A stretch of 64,000 bases of DNA from Chiloscyllium plagiosum (Eukaryota). This document shows positions 25,545 through 56,940 of this stretch, one piece after another. Below the pieces are notes generated by a model. The model was not told the origin of the DNA, did no database searches, and saw only the letters and a list, made by a program, of their open reading frames with translations. Made by a program: the position numbers and the translations under genes. The stretch covers positions 33,399,703-33,463,702 of the forward strand of contig NC_057740.1 in assembly GCF_004010195.1 (NCBI RefSeq). Reading direction: 5' to 3'. Position 1 is the first letter of the stretch. Each line of letters starts with the position of its first letter.

Positions 25545-27390
25545 CACAAAAACAGAAGTTGCTGGAAAAGCTCAGCAGGTCTCAGCAGCATTTGTGGAGA
25601 GAAATCAGTTAACATTCAGATCCGGTGACTTTCCTCAGATCTAATGATAGCTAGAAAAATGTTGGTTCATATGCAGAAGATAGGATGGGGGGGGGGGTTA
25701 AGGAGTAAATGATAGGTGGGGATAGAGCACAAAGAGACAGAAGAACAGTTGGACAGACAAAGGACAAAGGAGTCAATAACTATATGGCTGGGAGGGTGAA
25801 TAGCTGTTAATGGAGACTGTTAGTGACTAACACTAGGTAGTATGCAATGGCAGACTATGTGATAACAAGGCCTGGTGTCTGGGTTTGGGGGCTAGGACAT
25901 GAGAGAGTTCAGGCCCTAAAATTATCGAACGCGACATTGAGTCCAGAGGGGTGCAAGGTCCCCAGGTGGAAAATTTGATGTTGTCCTTCCAGCTTGCACT
26001 GAGCTTCGCTGGAACATTATAGCAAGCCTGAGGCAGCGATGTTGGCCAGATGTTGGTGAGTTAAAGTCAAAAAGGGTGACGCTGGAAAAGAACAGCAGGT
26101 GAGGCAGCATCCAGGGAGCAGGAGAGTTGACGTTTTGGGCATGAGCCCTTCATCAGAAATGCGTTAGAGTGCTTTTTGCAGGCAGAACGTAGATGTTCTA
26201 TGAAGTGGTCACCCAGTCTACATTCCGTTTCCCCAACGTACAGGAGACCACATTGTGAGCTGTGAATGCAATGGACAAGATTGAGTGAAGTGCAGGTAAA
26301 GTGCTGCTTCATCTGGAAGGTGTGTTTGGGCCCTTGGATACTGAGGAGGGAGGGGGTAAATGGGTAGATGTTACACCTATGGCAGTTGCAGGGGAAGATG
26401 CTATAGGAGTGTGTGTGTGTGTGTGTTTGTGTTTGTGTTTGTGTTTGTGTTTGTGTGTTGGGGGTGGGGGGGGGAGGATGGTGTTAGAAGAGTGGCCCAG
26501 GGTGTCCCAGATCTGCAGAAGGCTGACAAGGGAGGGGAGGGGAATATGTGTCCGGTGGTGACATCTTACTGGAAATGGCAGTTGGTGATCTTCTGGATGT
26601 GGATGCTGGTGGGATGATAAGTAAGGACAAGGGGAACCCAATCGCTGGTACAGGAGGGAAGAGAGGAGGTAAGGGCCAAAGTGTGGAAGATGGGTTGGAC
26701 CCTCAATTGAGGGCCCTGTCAACAATGGTGCTGTGGAATCCTCGGTTGTGGTAGCAGGTGGACATTTTAAAGACACCCTTGTTGAAGTAGGCATTATCGG
26801 AACATATGCGTTGGAGTTGGAGGAACTGGGAGAATAGAATGGAGTCTTTACAGGAAGCAGGGTGTGAGGATGTATGGTCCAGGTAACTGTGGGAGTCGGT
26901 GGGATTGTAGCGGATATTAGTGGCCAGTCTATCCCCAGAATGGAAACAGAGATGTCAAGGAAGGGAAGGGAGGAATTAGAGATAGACCAGGTGAAAGTGA
27001 GGGAAAGATGGAAATTGGAAACAAAATTGATTAACTTTTCCAATTCAGAATGAGAGAGTGAAGCAGCACCAATGATACCATTGATTACTTGGAGAAAGAG
27101 TTGTGAGTAGGAGTCAGAAAAGGAATGGAATAAGGAGTGTTCCACATACTCCAAAAAGCGACAGGCATAACCAGGGCCCCTGTGGGTACCAATGGCCACG
27201 CCTCTGAACTGAAGCAAATGAGAAGAATTTTTTAAAAAGTTGTTGAGGGTGAGGACAAGTTCAGCCAAACAGAGGAGGCTGGGGTGGGTGGGAATGGTTC
27301 AGGCCTTTGCTCCAGGAAGGTGAGGAGAGCCCTGAGACCATCCTGCTGGGGGATGGACATGTAAAGGGATTGCATATCTACGGTGAAGAG
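25545..27390 (-). mobile_element. Degenerate Penelope-like retroelement (RT plus GIY-YIG plus pLTR), Neptune-like
   Basis: RT motifs D.QSLY.SIP and ELVLTLNNF..Q..GVA.GT..GP.YAC, LPFLDI; Cys-rich linker FPCNC.RCN; GIY-YIG NLVHCIH.SQCGLLYVGET; frameshifted; nested mini-element at about 26065-26160. Confidence 0.9.
26409..26458. repeat. (GT)n/(GTTTGT)n compound microsatellite
   Basis: Directly visible. Confidence 0.9.
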
Positions 27391-29961: not shown

Positions 29962-31088
29962 TGTTACAGACCAAACCCCTTCAAGATATATTAAGAAGAT
30001 TGCTTATACTTTAACTTTTTCTTATTTTAAAGGTAAGTATAAGGCTTTGCATTCCAGATGCAATTCAGTTGGTTAAACTACTCAACTTTAAGCAAAACAC
30101 ATTATTTTTATACTACAATTAAAATACAGACAAAATAAATATAAAAGAAAATAATTGGTTTAGCTGTAACTCTATCAAAATGCTTAACAAAGTAATATAT
30201 ATTAACTGCTCCAATATAGTAATATTCCCTAAACACACCCTTGACAAAAGGTAAATTCAGTAAAACATATTGTCTCACATGCAATTCTAGCAGCAGGAAG
30301 CGAACCCCTGCTTTTAGCTGGATCAGTGAAAGGAATAAGAGCTATTTGTCGAGGTTCGCCCCGAGCAGCACCGTGAAGCGGGACTCCGTGCTCTATGGTC
30401 TGTTCCCTGGGACGCACACCGAGACGAACATCAACTGTGCCTGGAGGATCATCAACTCGGTGAAGGATGCTCTCTGGGTGGTCCGAAACCTGTTGATCTT
30501 CCAGCTGAAGGAGTTGACCCCGACTGAGTGTTGCAGACTGGCACATTCCAAGGTCCAGGACTATGTGTTGAGGGACGCGCTGAAGCTTGGGGCAGCTGCT
30601 GCCAAGGCGCAGTGGGGAAAGATCACCATGTAACATCTGCCTGCCTAAGAAGAACAGGGGGCCCACGCAGTCTTTTGGACTCTGCTGATGCCTCAGCTAA
30701 ATATATGGACATATGATTGATAAATGTACAGACCTGTATATACAAATGATAAATTCTGATCTCTGTATGCAAATGTTTACGTATGTATGGCATGACTAAC
30801 TGTACAGACCATCAAATTATTTTATGAATAAAGAATATTTTTGAAATAAAAAAAAGCTTCCACATCCAGCAACTTCAGAAAGCTAAAACTAAAAATTCTG
30901 GTTCTGTCGGAGCTTCACCCCACCCATTCAGTCTGCTTCTATTGTTCCAACTTTTTTAAAAATCCAAAGCCTTACAAACTGTTTACTTTAGTGGCTTTGA
31001 GCAGACCACTCATACCTCTATCTCAACTTTTCTTCACAAGAAAAACCAGGACAAAATACATCTCTTAAAGTCATAGTATAGTCGCACA
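29962..31088 (-). mobile_element. Solo-LTR-like element interrupted by a Tx1/L1 insertion, itself within an old LINE
   Basis: TG...CA ends; homology to 22454-23084; the host LINE resumes after 31088. Confidence 0.55.
30343..30855 (+). mobile_element. Tx1/L1-clade LINE 3' end (ORF2 C-terminus, 3'UTR, polyA)
   Basis: YLSRF..VLYGLFPGTH..AWRIINSVKDALW..RN..W C-terminus ending at 30633; AATAAA at about 30827 followed by an A tail; GC/CpG-rich, so relatively young. Confidence 0.75.
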
Positions 31089-35160: not shown

Positions 35161-35489
35161 ATTGCGAGGTCAGAATTCAGGAAGTTAACTGTTTCAGTGG
35201 AGGATTTACAAAATAATTAATTGGTCTCTTGAGTTAATTCTGATCTGGGAATTGAATGGAAAGTGAACATTGGCACCATCCAGTGGTCACAGCAAGTATT
35301 GACACTTCTCATTCACTTGTTCTCATTGACCTCTATAATTCATTCTCAACCGCAACATTTCTAAAATCTAGACATAATATCCACTTTACAAGAAAAAATT
35401 GCCTTCTTTTAATCTTCTGCATGAAACCTTTCAGACATAGCAAAATAGTACATTAATTTCGATACTTTCATTTCCAATTCTGAACATGT

Positions 35490-35830
35490 CGGACATTGGT
35501 TAGGCCACTGTTGGAATATTGCATGCAATTCTGGTCTCCTTCCTATCGGAAAGATGTTGCGAAACTTGAAAGGGTTCAGAAAGGATTTACAAGGATGTTG
35601 CCAGGGTTGGAGGATGTGAGCTACAGCGAGAGGCTGAACAGGCTGGGGCTGTTTTCCCTGGAGTGTCGGAGGCTGAGGGGTGACCTTTACAAAATTATGA
35701 GGGGCATAGATAGGGTAAATAGGCAAAGTCTTTTCCCTGGGGTCGGGGAGACAAGAACTAGAGTGGTCGACATGGACAGGTTGGACCAAAGGGTCTGTTT
35801 CCATGCTGTACATCTCTATGACTCTATGTC
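35490..35830 (+). mobile_element. CR1/HER1-like LINE 3' fragment (internally deleted)
   Basis: ORF 35496..35882 reads VRPLLEYCMQFWSPSYRKDVAKLERVQKGFTRMLPGL. Confidence 0.9.
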
Positions 35831-36334
35831 ATATGTGTTTCTAAACATTAAGTCTGTTTCTCTCTGTTGCCAGACCTGCTGAATTTTTTCAGCAGTCCCT
35901 ATATTTGTTTTAGATTTCCAGCATCCACAGTATTTGCTTTCATTTGATGTTTTATCCTTGTTCTGTAATCACTCCATGCTATCTCTGCAATCTTGTCCAG
36001 CTTTCCGATTCTGTGAGATCTGAATGCTCTTCCATTTCTGGCTGTCAAAATCTTCCTTACTGTGCAGACAGCATGTGTGTCTTAAACAACAATGACTTGC
36101 ATTTATATTGCACATTTAACATAGCCAACCTTCCCAAGCCACGTAAACAAGAAACACTATCAGTAATGTAAACATTTCAGATGCCAAACCACGGAATAAG
36201 GTATCAGAACCAAAAGCTTTGTCAAAAATGTATGCTTCAATAAGTATCTTAATGTAGAGTAAGGCAGAGACAGAGATTTAGGGAGGCAATTCTGGAGCCA
36301 AAGATTCAGGCATGTGGAAGCAATGCACCCACAA

Positions 36335-41310: not shown

Positions 41311-43184
41311 GGTTGTTCATAGATATATCTGGTCTACTCAACCTTTGTTCAATATGCAATGAGTTTCATTTGACAGGAATATCAGGGAGATTATTGGAAA
41401 TACTGGTGATACTGGACAGTACATAAGATGTGCACAGCCTAAACAAACATGAGGTGTGATAAAAAAATTTGGTACTTTGAACATCAAAAGTAAAAACGAA
41501 ACTCTGCAATTTATTGTAATGGTAAGCACAGTGCTTTACAGGAAACAGAATGCTGTACTTCAGCAAATACAGGTGCAGCTTTTCCATTTCCAGTTATCTA
41601 AAGTGTTACTTATTTAATTGAAAACCTTCTTCCATTTTATCACCTCATATAGAGATATATTTGAGACTCAAACAAGCAATTGCATTTGCTTTTAATTTCA
41701 GTTTATAGAAGGAGTTGGTGATTTCCGAGCAGTAATTTAGTTCCAGCCCATTCCAGGAATTTTCAATCTCAATACTCCTCCTCTGCTTACTCTTAAATTT
41801 TTATCATCTGTGGTTTTAAAGGTCATTTTAACATTTAACAGATAAATGTACTTACTGCCTCGACTTTGTTTAACTTTAACAAAGCGTACCACTGGAGAAA
41901 GAAACAGATATGCAGGATCCAAGTTATGAGAGGAGCAAGGATATTTTAATTCGGAAGCACTTCAAACAGTATTGAAAGGGCTTTTGGAAACGTTTTGGTG
42001 TGTCATTATAAAAAAAAATGTATTCTCAGTGCTGAACACTGCAACAAACTGCTGCAATTCCAGGTAACTGACAAAATTGAGTGAAAAATATTTCAGGATC
42101 CATTTTCTTCCTTGAAGATGTCCAGCTCTCAATGAAAAATCATGGAACTGGCAGGTACTTCTATCGTTTTTCTTTTCCATAGAGCTGGCATGCTGAATGT
42201 GTTTATTTTAGATGCTATATAACTAGGATATTTTGTGTTTTGCTTTCATTTATGGTTTAGTATTTCATTTTCTGAAGGTCATTAACTGCTGCATTATTCC
42301 AGTATTTTATGTTTTCATTGACTTCCTACTTTCAACTCCAAACCCCACATAATTCAGAAAGGCTTTTCTACCCATTCCCACACTCTTGCTTCCAGTCTCC
42401 CCAGCTTATATCCTTGCCAACCATCCACTTTTTCCACAGTTGCCTGTTCGTCCAAGCAACATCTTCCAAGGAATGTCAGGTTCCACAAGCTCATCCAGCT
42501 CTACCTCAAGTCCATCTTTCTTAATCCTCCATTTCACACAATCTGCTTTTCTGACATCCAGTTTGTGGGGAGCAGAAATTTCCTTGAAATCTTTTCATCA
42601 AGATGAGAGCTGCTGTGTTCTATGTCTGTTAAAATACAAGCCCATTCCCTGGCACTTATTCCATTATTCCTCTCCCTTGCCACTCTCTGAAAGTGAACCT
42701 AGCCATTCATAACCTCTGCATGTTGTATCACCTTGAGCAGATTGAAATTTATATGAACTGTACCCAAACTTTTACCAAGCTCAGATCCCCATCATCGAAC
42801 TGCTCCCTAATCTAACAATACCTTAACTTTAAGATTCTCAATCTTGTAATAATACCCTCAATACCTTACCCTCTTTCGGCTCATTACCCCAAAAGGTCAA
42901 CATCACTCCACTCTCCTCAGATGTTGCTTGACCTGCTGAGCATTTCCAACATTTCTCTTTATACAGGAAGTACAGCAAAGACTCAGCACGTCTGGGAGAA
43001 TTTTATTCTGGCTTTGCAGCACCTTAAGTATTTTGGATCAATTGAGGACAGCTGATAATTCCCTCGGCAAAACAAATAGGATGAACAGACTTGACCTTAA
43101 ATTATGTAAAACATTGAATTGAAAGGCCTCAGTGTCTGTAAAAACTAACAGAGGAGAATGCTTGAGGGACAAATTCTAATCCAC

Positions 43185-43217
43185 CTGTTCTTTTTTTAAA
43201 TTGCTTTCTCCAAATAG
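43185..43217 (+). other. Splice acceptor 8 nt upstream of the connexin ATG
   Basis: Polypyrimidine tract ...TTGCTTTCTCCAAATAG; typical connexin layout of a 5'UTR intron followed by one coding exon. Confidence 0.65.
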
Positions 43218-43225
43218 AACTACAA

Positions 43226-43819
43226 ATGGATTCAGTCACGCAGATGACCTTGACTCTCCTGAGTGGCACAGGAGCCTATGCCTCACCTCGTGTCAAAAAC
43301 AGTTTGGCTCTAATCTTCGGCATTCGTTTCCTTGTGGTTATCATCAACACATTCACCATTTGGAAGGATGACCTGCTCGATCTGCAGTGTAATTCCACCC
43401 GGGTGGGCTGTCGCCACCAGTGTTATACCGAGTTTTCACCTCTGTCACCATTTACCTTATTCACACTGCAACTCGTGTTCATTTTCACCCTCTCGATGGC
43501 AAACTATTTATACAACAGTCTGTATGCATCAGAAGGCAGAGAATGGAAGACAGGCTTTATCAACATGCTTGCCAAAATACTAATTGAAGGATTCTTCCTC
43601 TTTTTGCATCATATGCTCTACCCAAATATACTGAGGCCACACATGTTTGAATGTCACATAACTCCCTGTGAGAAGACTGTGGTTTGTGTAATGTTGAAAA
43701 GCCAACAGAAAGATGTCTTTGTGATGTTTATGTACACATGTTCATTTGCTTCTCTCTTGCTTGGGGTAAGAGAGATATACTCTTCAGTAGCAAAACATAC
43801 TTTTAAAACCTACATATAA
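43226..43819 (+). CDS. Divergent short connexin (gap-junction family) protein, 197 aa
   Basis: Four hydrophobic segments; EL1 C-X6-C-X3-C (C55, C62, C66) and EL2 C-X4-C-X5-C (C143, C148, C154); R34, WKDD, LQL, K..IE, K.VF..FM and E183 match connexin consensus; intact ORF in repeat-free DNA. Confidence 0.88.
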   Translation: MDSVTQMTLTLLSGTGAYASPRVKNSLALIFGIRFLVVIINTFTIWKDDLLDLQCNSTRVGCRHQCYTEFSPLSPFTLFTLQLVFIFTLSMANYLYNSLYASEGREWKTGFINMLAKILIEGFFLFLHHMLYPNILRPHMFECHITPCEKTVVCVMLKSQQKDVFVMFMYTCSFASLLLGVREIYSSVAKHTFKTYI

Positions 43820-43940: not shown

Positions 43941-43946
43941 AATAAA
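43941..43946 (+). terminator. Candidate polyA signal of the connexin gene
   Basis: AATAAA 122 nt after the stop, followed by a GT-rich tract. Confidence 0.6.
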
Positions 43947-53556: not shown

Positions 53557-53817
<261 letters not shown>

Positions 53818-54485: not shown

Positions 54486-55400
54486 ATTTTTGAGAAGATT
54501 TGTAGTTCAGGTTTAGGTTCAGATTGTAGGTTTGCTCGCTGAGCTGGAAGGTTTGATTTCAGATGTTTCGTCATTATACCAGGTATTATCATTAGTGAGC
54601 CGCCGGTGTTCTGTCCCACTTTCTATTTGCGTGTCTTGATCTGTTAAGGTGGGTGATACCATTTCCGCTTCCAGAGGTTGGTAAAATGGGTCCAAACCAA
54701 TGCGTTTATTGATGGGAGTTCCAGTTTGAATACCAGGCCTCTAGGAATTCCCATGTGTGTTGCTGTTTAGCCTGTCCTAGGGTGGATGTGTTGTCCCAGT
54801 CGAATTGGTGTCCTTCTTTGTCTGTATGTAAGGATACTAGTGATAATGGGTCATGTCTTTTAATGGATAATTGGTGTTTGTGTATCCTGATGGATACTTT
54901 TCTGCCTGTCTGTCCAATGTTGTGTTTGCTACAGTCCTTGCAGGATATTTCGTAAATGACATTAGTTTTGCAGGTTGTTGGTACAAGGTCCTTTAGGTTC
55001 ATCAGTAGCTGTTTCAGTGTGTTGGTAGGTTTGTGGGATACCATGATGCCAAGTCTGGTATTCATCTCCGAAATGTGTTTGATGTATGTTAGTGTGGCTC
55101 AGATTTCTGGGCGTGTTGTGTCTACTTGCTTGGGATCATTGTTTAAGAATCAGCAGACTGTATTTATAGTATACCCATTGTTCTTGACTACGCTGTATTT
55201 TTCTTCTGCCGCTCATAGTTCCTGGGTGCTGCAGTGTGTTGTGGTACCAGAAAGATATCACCCACCTTAACAAACCAAAACACAAATAGAAAGCGGGCCA
55301 GATCTCCATTGCTTCACCGGAGGATCACTGATTATGTTACCTAGCATGGTGACGAAACGTCTGAAAACAAACCTTCCAGCTCAGCGAGAAAACTTACAAC
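54486..55400 (-). mobile_element. Penelope-like element 3' part with inverted pLTRs (Poseidon-like), in RPS15 intron 2
   Basis: ORF 54706..55065 reads NVIYEISCKDCSKHNIGQTGR..HQFDWDN; pLTRs at about 54520-54660 (-) and 55255-55400 (+), each with a decayed hammerhead core. Confidence 0.88.
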
Positions 55401-55571: not shown

Positions 55572-56940
55572 TCAAAACGTGTGGCACTGGAAAAACACAG
55601 CAGGTCAGGCAACATCCAAGGAGCAGGAGAATTGACATTTCAGGCATGATTCCTTAATCAGGAATGTGGTTCGGTGGGGGCTGAGAGATAAATAGAAGAG
55701 GGTGGGAGGAAGGTAGCGGCAAAGATAATAGGTAGATCCAGGTGGGGTTTGATGGTGACAGGTTGGAGCAGAGGATGGAGCAAATAGGTAGGAAGGTAGA
55801 TGGACAGGTGGGACAGTCCAAGAGGGTGGTGCCAAGTTGGAGGGTTGGATCTCGGATTGGGGGGGGGGNNNNNNNNNNNNNNNNNNNNNNNNNNNAAACT
55901 AGTGAAATCAACATTTATATTGTGTGGTTGGTGGATCCCAAGATGGAAAATGAGGTGTTTTTCCTCCAGGCATCAGGTGGCTAGGATTTGGCAGTGGCGG
56001 AGGCCCAGGACTGGCATGTCCTTGGTAGAATAGGAGGGGGAGTTGAAGTGGTTGGCCACAGGGCAGTGGGCTTGTTTGGTGTGTATATCTCAGATTTTCC
56101 CTGAAATATTCTGAGAGTTGGTGTTGTCTCTCCAATGTAGAGGGCAGTGGATGAGGTGTTCAGATGTGCAGGAAAATCTTTGCTGGATGTGGAAGGATTT
56201 TGGAGGCATTAAGTGGAGGTGAGGGCACGGGGGAGGGGGGAGTTTAGAAGAAGGTATAGTCCAGGTAGCTGTGGGAGTCAGTGGGTTTGAAGTAGATGCC
56301 TGTGTTGAGTTGTTCACTAGAAAAGGATCCTTCCACAGCCAGCAAAGACTTTTCAGCACATCCAAACACCTCACCTATTGTGTCCGTTACTCTCGATGTG
56401 GTCTCCTCTATATTGGGGAGACAGGACGCCAACTCATGAAGTATTTCAGAGAACATCTCTGGGACACATGCACCAACAAACAACCTCTCCGCCCTGTGGC
56501 CGACAACTTCAACTCCCCCTACAACTCCACCAAGGACATGCAAGTCCTGGGCTACCTCCACCGCCAAATCCGAGCCACTCAATGCCTGGAGGAAGAACGC
56601 CTCATCTTCTGCCATGGGACCCTTCAACCACAAGGCATCCGTGTCAATTTCACCATCTCCCATCTCATCCCAGGTCCAAGTCTCCAACTTGGCAACCCCT
56701 CTTGAACTATCCCATATGTCCATCTTCCTTCCCACTTATCCACTCTGACCTGCAACCATCACCTGCATCTACCTATCTCCTTCCCAGCTACCACCCTCCC
56801 AGCCCCACTTACCCCCTCCTATTTATTTCTCAGATGAAGGGCTTATGTTCAAAACATCAATTCTCCTGCTTGACCTATGTTTTCCGAGCACCACATTTTT
56901 CGACTCGTGAGTCCAGTATCTGCAGTCCTCACTTACTCCT
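55572..56940. mobile_element. Neptune-like PLE fragments in inverted arrangement, in RPS15 intron 2
   Basis: Plus-strand GIY-YIG ORF 56271..56705 (YCVRYSRCGLLYIGETGR..EH) and a minus-strand counterpart at 55900-56320; pLTR at each end. Confidence 0.85.
55869..55895. other. Assembly gap (27 N) after a poly-G run
   Basis: Directly visible. Confidence 0.99.

Follow-up and report, generated by a model that had tools for sequence, protein, structure and literature searches.

A conserved N-glycosylation sequon on the docking asparagine of an orphan vertebrate connexin clade suggests a connexin built to stay unpaired

Connexins are stated in several published accounts to be unglycosylated (PMC5983588, PMC2173298, PMC5412853), and the argument of one evolutionary account rests on glycosylated innexin homologues versus unglycosylated connexins (PMC8769644). 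The window analysed here, a stretch of 64,000 nucleotides of the Chiloscyllium plagiosum genome, encodes a connexin with a glycosylation sequon in its first extracellular loop (EL1), and raises the question of whether such a protein is glycosylated, whether it can dock and whether it conducts. The gene is laid out as follows.

42142..42154, plus strand: upstream coding mini-exon of 13 bases, encoding Met-Glu-Leu-Ala plus one base, then a GT donor
42155..43217, plus strand: GT...AG intron, GT-AG splicing to 43218, with a pyrimidine tract ahead of the AG
43218..43819, plus strand: main coding exon, a four-helix connexin with short cytoplasmic loop and tail
43941..43946, plus strand: candidate polyadenylation signal, the first AATAAA past the stop codon (motif only)

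The open reading frame at 43226-43819 (plus strand) translates to 197 aa and is part of an intact two-exon connexin gene. Residues are numbered from the second ATG, at 43226, and N56 is thus N63 of the spliced 204-aa form. The mini-exon sequence has one match only, against 0 expected by chance; the frame obtained by splicing it to the main exon reproduces the database protein P0002 exactly, and the N-terminus that it encodes recurs in the C. punctatum isoform P0014. Over its full length the protein is identical to the 204-aa C. plagiosum record termed "gap junction beta-5 protein-like" ('gjb5-like').

Elsewhere in the window, the exons of the intron-containing gene RPS15 (uS19; Pfam PF00203) lie at 53557-53817 and at about 57030, both on the minus strand, tail to tail with the connexin gene. 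RPS15 was the only other Pfam match when 150 of the window's 160 frames of at least 72 aa were scanned, and it is a usable marker for gene-order comparison. Frames resembling decayed retrotransposons were recognized by eye at 26312-27298 (minus), 30223-30696, 35484-35879 (plus), 54709-55098 (minus) and 56223-56735, with no Pfam match.

The sole Pfam match of the protein is PF00029 (Connexin), with an E-value of 1.6e-30 and 107 bits against a cut-off of 31.3. Its AlphaFold2 model (pLDDT 82) has four helices, and the top Foldseek match of this model is Cx32 (TM 0.86, rmsd 1.9). All six cysteines of the extracellular loops are present with canonical spacings, C-x6-C-x3-C in EL1 and C-x4-C-x5-C in EL2. 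A search of the ESM Atlas returned generic connexin clusters only, and a four-copy complex prediction run without an alignment scored 0.00, which counts neither for nor against assembly. Membership of the pannexins or innexins is ruled out by the single Pfam match and by the three cysteines per loop, against two in those families. The initial annotation had called the protein pannexin-like, which stands as a functional analogy only; by sequence and fold it is a six-cysteine connexin.

The following elements of EL1 are of direct relevance to docking.

43388..43423, plus strand: EL1 cysteine motif C55-x6-C62-x3-C66 with canonical spacing, translating to CNSTRVGCRHQC
43391..43399, plus strand: sequon N56-S57-T58 (codons AAT-TCC-ACC), the Asn being the Cx26 docking residue N54
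43400..43408, plus strand: R59-V60-G61, replacing the Cx26 docking apex Q57-P58-G59 in the alignment to Cx26

The translation confirms the sequon that had been claimed for these nine bases, and N56-S57-T58 is the only N-x-S/T within the 197-aa frame. In the alignment of EL1 to Cx26, N56 falls on N54, T58 on L56, R59 on Q57 and V60 on P58. The docking interface of Cx26 is given as N54, L56, Q57, K168, N176, T177 and D179 in an account citing the crystal structure, in which N54 bonds to L56 of the opposite protomer (PMC6584803). The sequon therefore sits on a docking contact and not merely in the loop, since N56 corresponds to N54 and N54 belongs to that interface. In the model, N56 lies 11 residues past the end of helix 1 and adjoins a cysteine, with the next helix starting at residue 62. 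Closeness to a membrane helix and a neighbouring cysteine can each lower glycan occupancy.

Ordinary connexins were represented by 146 other connexin domains, 144 of them with a readable EL1 core. The contrast drawn by the initial annotation holds in this set, as the sequon at the N54 position occurs in 0/144 loops in spite of the same Asn being present in 129/144. Among the Asn-bearing loops S/T at +2 was found in 0/129, and among Asp-bearing loops Thr was found in 1/13. In canonical connexins this +2 position (L56 of Cx26) is highly variable, and selection against the creation of a sequon there is possible. In 9/144 other rows a stray N-x-S/T is present at some other place in the loop windows (two from misaligned stretches), and because of these a loop sequon by itself proves little.

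A single-sequence search gave 12 matches, all from cartilaginous fishes and including a ray and a chimaera. At least nine of the best 150 of 646 matches of a profile search fall within this group, with axolotl, caecilian, lungfish, sturgeon, frog and two lizards among their sources, and two further profile searches, in which 8000 candidates were scored, added turtles, lizards, snakes and paddlefish. The resulting 45 tree rows comprise 13 chondrichthyan, 3 sturgeon, 1 lungfish, 3 amphibian, 7 turtle and 18 squamate sequences, three of the squamate rows being assigned by tree placement. Monophyly of the clade was recovered with SH-aLRT 100 and UFBoot 100 on a stem of 0.87 (18 chosen outgroups), and with 1.0 in FastTree among 141 other connexins (two partial rows dropped). 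Nesting within a named beta orthogroup (GJB1-7, gjb11) is ruled out by this separate placement at 100/100. The sister group is unstable, being P0052 at 0.21 in FastTree and the hagfish protein P0106 at 76/62. The branching roughly follows vertebrate phylogeny, from which we infer one orthogroup dating to the jawed-vertebrate ancestor. The names gjb1/2/3/4/5/6/7-like carried by its members in the databases are inconsistent labels for one orthogroup. This is an old, barely described branch of the connexin family, and the sequon is a feature of the whole orphan orthogroup.

No teleost, bird, crocodile or mammal member was recovered among the 8000 candidates scored or the best 150 of 646 matches, which does not establish absence; the subfamily may have been overlooked on account of its apparent absence from standard model animals. 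The teleost records P0022, P0023, P0033 and P0035 were rejected as orthologues despite high profile scores, as they fall in another clade, have no sequon and in most cases retain P58-G59 and R75. Each of these chains holds two divergent connexin domains in tandem, either through genuine fusion or because adjacent genes were merged in the record, and they are candidates for the gjz1 type. Among sea turtles, P0200, P0201 and P0211-P0213 have the stretch before EL1 out of frame relative to other turtles, with N-A-S still present, which may reflect a frameshift common to the marine turtles or loss of the gene in them.

Lack of conservation of the sequon among orthologues had been named by the initial annotation as an outcome that would refute its reading, and this outcome did not materialize. 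The sequon is kept in 39/45 tree rows, and in 43/50 once five later rows are added. It is present in 13/13 chondrichthyan rows (the query and its 12 matches), all as N-S-S/T, in all nine further turtle records, and in all seven isoforms or near-duplicates omitted from the trees. The clade rows are related and the counts overstate the events, so the independent support amounts to a few lineages and not 50 trials. The 43 sequons are written with six tripeptides (NST 22, NAS 8, NSS 5, NTS 5, NAT 2, NGT 1), the middle residue varying between S, A, T and G. The third residue is S or T in 44/44 rows with Asn as against 2/6 rows without it (Fisher p 6.5e-5, rows not independent). Parsimony counts 10 changes at the third position over the 45-row tree, of which just two go to a residue other than S/T; these are in agamids and lacertids, where the Asn is lost as well. 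The position of Q57 changes 25 times and that of P58 14 times, among many residues. Entropy at +2 is 1.4 bits in the clade against 3.1 in other connexins, whereas at Q57 it is 3.1 against 0.7 and at P58 2.6 against 0.4. The constraint is inverted relative to other connexins, and the coupling of S/T to Asn is what selection acting on the whole N-x-S/T triplet would be expected to produce.

The same triplet could have been kept for structure, as a turn or helix cap in a remodelled EL1 carrying no sugar, with docking lost via residue changes only. Such an account draws on the commonness of Asn in ordinary connexins too, on the small residue at +1, on the modelled helix that begins at residue 62, and on a site near the membrane and a cysteine. 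Against it, S/T goes together with Asn in the clade; a cap would usually accept Asp, yet S/T is kept in only 2/4 of the clade rows with Asp in place of Asn, and a single clade row with Asn has Pro at +1. We regard it as rather improbable.

Nor does the sequon look like a by-product of relaxed selection in a decaying gene, a disfavoured reading to which we attach hardly any credence. The long branches, the out-of-frame N-termini of the sea-turtle records, and the lack of bird, crocodile, mammal or teleost members among the matches scored or listed would fit decay. Against it, the frame is full-length in sharks, chimaera, sturgeons, lungfish, amphibians, other turtles and squamates, the core has invariant residues, and conservation is higher at the sequon than at the adjoining positions.

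The sequon is lost in 7/50 rows, from agamids, lacertids, Elgaria, Heteronotia and Pelodiscus. None of the six sequon-less rows checked has regained the docking residues, from which it follows that non-docking does not depend on the glycan; its selected role may be folding or trafficking more than blocking. A second sequon occurs late in EL2 of axolotl, lungfish and Sceloporus (P0018, P0020, P0185).

Beyond EL1, two further stretches depart from Cx26.

43454..43492, plus strand: start of TM2, with T77, F79 and L89 for Cx26 R75, W77 and P87
43652..43699, plus strand: EL2, C143-x4-C148-x5-C154 kept; K150, V153 and K158 for Cx26 N176, D179 and R184

The alignment of EL2 pairs E142 with K168, E149 with P175, K150 with N176, T151 with T177 and V153 with D179, of which T177 alone is kept. 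The altered EL2 proposed by the initial annotation is accordingly real for the docking residues, the cysteine spacing being canonical. Of the docking set N54, Q57, P58, N176 (or H) and D179, only the Asn is kept in the window protein, and it lies within the sequon. Across the clade, Q57 is found in 11/45 rows versus 131/146 others, P58 in 2/45 versus 139/146, N or H at 176 in 1/45 versus 103/146, and D or E at 179 in 0/45 versus 117/146. Four further residues of Cx26 are absent throughout the clade: R75 (0/45 versus 132/146), W77 (0/45 versus 134/146), P87 (0/45 versus 142/146) and R184 (0/45 versus 124/146). W77 is replaced by F in 40/45 rows, and E47 is kept as E or D in 43/45.

The remainder of the protein is maintained. 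Equivalents of R32, Q80, E147, K188 and F191 in the helix core are kept across the clade, the N-terminal helix has a near-invariant L-S-G, the three EL1 cysteines are invariant (45/45 rows), and five of the six extracellular cysteines are invariant clade-wide. The EL2 spacing of 4/5 is found in 26/45 rows, the loop spacings drifting in squamates. In snakes (P0186, P0188, P0192, P0193, P0194 and P0196) the first EL2 cysteine is replaced by Phe in 6/6 rows, leaving five loop cysteines. The docking surface is released from constraint, with the scaffold of fold and cysteines kept.

Gap junctions could still be formed via a new, self-specific docking code, with the sequon unoccupied or tolerated. 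The six cysteines with canonical spacings in the window protein and the good conservation of both extracellular loops within chondrichthyans would suit such a code, and seven innexins with predicted sequons are reported to form junctions nonetheless (PMC8769644). The positions concerned settle on no fixed residues, as the changes counted above at Q57 and P58 attest, and the drift of loop spacings in squamates is likewise contrary to a code; we judge this very unlikely.

The residues lost at TM2 and in EL2 bear on conduction also. In the table of a review, Cx26 R75Q/W is without junction and hemichannel function, and W77R and R184P/Q are without junction function (PMC4896260). The window protein may thus not conduct, because R75 is lost in the clade and R75Q/W abolishes hemichannel function in Cx26. 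The absence of R75, W77, P87 and R184 clade-wide makes a non-conducting or partner-inhibiting role the main rival, in which the protein is glycosylated and non-docking but no channel by itself, being either a non-conducting membrane protein or a junction inhibitor. The inhibitor version supposes co-assembly with ordinary connexins, the glycan blocking their docking and turning the partners into hemichannels. The loss of the first EL2 cysteine in snakes adds to the case, and E47 persists as E/D as counted above. The four-helix core and the N-terminal helix with its L-S-G are nevertheless kept, and some of the substitutions are conservative or have become fixed (W77 to F), which a re-built interface fits equally. 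This rival is unlikely on balance, albeit a serious competitor.

Overall, the best explanation is a glycosylated, non-docking connexin acting as an unpaired single-membrane channel, which we hold at about even confidence. Its parts differ in strength. The EL1 site is quite probably glycosylated, the formation of gap junctions by the window protein is improbable, and both together are likely, the addition of conduction as a channel bringing the whole to slightly under an even prospect. The hemichannel-only, pannexin-like connexin of the initial annotation thus survives as a non-docking, glycan-capped protein, supported comparatively by the conserved sequon and the lost docking residues, and becomes doubtful as a hemichannel with R75, W77, P87 and R184 gone. 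The comparisons suggest a connexin built to stay unpaired, and the best reading is that an orthogroup as old as the jawed vertebrates would have given up end-to-end docking.

Mechanistically, the docking Asn would be N-glycosylated in the endoplasmic reticulum, and if an oligomer forms, a ring of glycans would crown its extracellular mouth and block pairing, whether with the same protein or with an ordinary connexin on the cell opposite. Folding control or delivery to the surface, as in Panx1, may be further functions of the glycan, and the unpaired oligomer would be a single-membrane channel with gating unlike that of ordinary hemichannels. Sites introduced into each of the two extracellular loops of Cx32 are reported to be glycosylated in HEK293T cells (PMC6368539), and connexin extracellular loops can therefore reach the transferase. 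Those Cx32 sites carried flexible linkers, unlike the N56 site. Sites engineered into Cx32 and Cx43 loops by Dahl (1994) and by Falk and Gilula (1998) were reportedly glycosylated and blocked junctions, which is not counted as evidence here.

If true, selection for a sequon on a docking residue throughout an orthogroup would be a natural exception to the rule that connexins are unglycosylated; no description of a natively glycosylated connexin was found in the literature searched, mostly outside subscription journals. It would also make testable an old question, the role of a connexin never able to form a junction, free of the overlapping hemichannel and junction roles that complicate the study of Cx26 or Cx43. 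An unnamed subfamily would be added to the vertebrate connexin phylogeny, with workable members in axolotl and frogs.

Among known systems, Cx26 (GJB2) and Cx32 (GJB1) are the best sequence and fold matches, sharing the four helices, the six extracellular cysteines and the short loop and tail. The window protein differs from them in its identity of about 25%, the sequon on N54 and its separate long-stemmed clade, and from Cx26 in the replacement of Q57, P58, N176, D179, R75, W77, P87 and R184. The Callorhinchus 'gjb5like' gene XM_007898730 of Mikalsen et al. (2021) belongs to the same orthogroup, its printed DNA start reading as P0013 including the EL1 motif (PMC7914757). Their supplement describes XM_007898730 as highly divergent, with no other chondrichthyan match, and omits it (PMC7914757); unlike in that account, it here has orthologues from sharks to squamates. 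Identity with gjb11 was rejected, since gjb11 has an ordinary N-T-Q-Q-P-G loop (PMC7914757). The same paper mentions unanalysed connexin-like genes as a possible further subfamily, citing a zebrafish gene later named gjz1 (PMC7914757). Zebrafish gjz1/Cx26.3, compared by description only, is likewise divergent, outside the standard subfamilies and said to have lobe-finned relatives (PMC9073686). It differs in being described as conserved in mammals, no teleost or mammal row of the present clade being among the matches scored or listed, and the main text of that paper makes no mention of glycosylation (PMC9073686).

Loss of junction formation has precedents of another kind, which are tied to the spacing or number of cysteines; the window protein has six canonical cysteines and a glycan site on the docking Asn. 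Cx23 (GJE1), in which two of the cysteines are missing, forms junctions poorly if at all. Cx31.3 (GJC3) resembles the window protein in its altered loops, and is reported to form hemichannels and no junctions (PMC11117596).

The pannexins Panx1-3 are alike in having a conserved extracellular N-glycosylation site, described as hindering docking and affecting surface delivery (PMC8769644, PMC9323506). They are an unrelated family of innexin homologues with two cysteines per loop, and the resemblance is convergence only. It is somewhat favoured, by a narrow preponderance of belief, that an ancestral jawed-vertebrate connexin subfamily turned its docking Asn into a glycosylation site, and so became a channel specialized for the unpaired state, or else a subunit whose glycan turns other connexins from junctions to hemichannels; connexins would then have arrived independently at the pannexin solution, with the subfamily surviving in sharks, sturgeons, lungfish, amphibians and reptiles.
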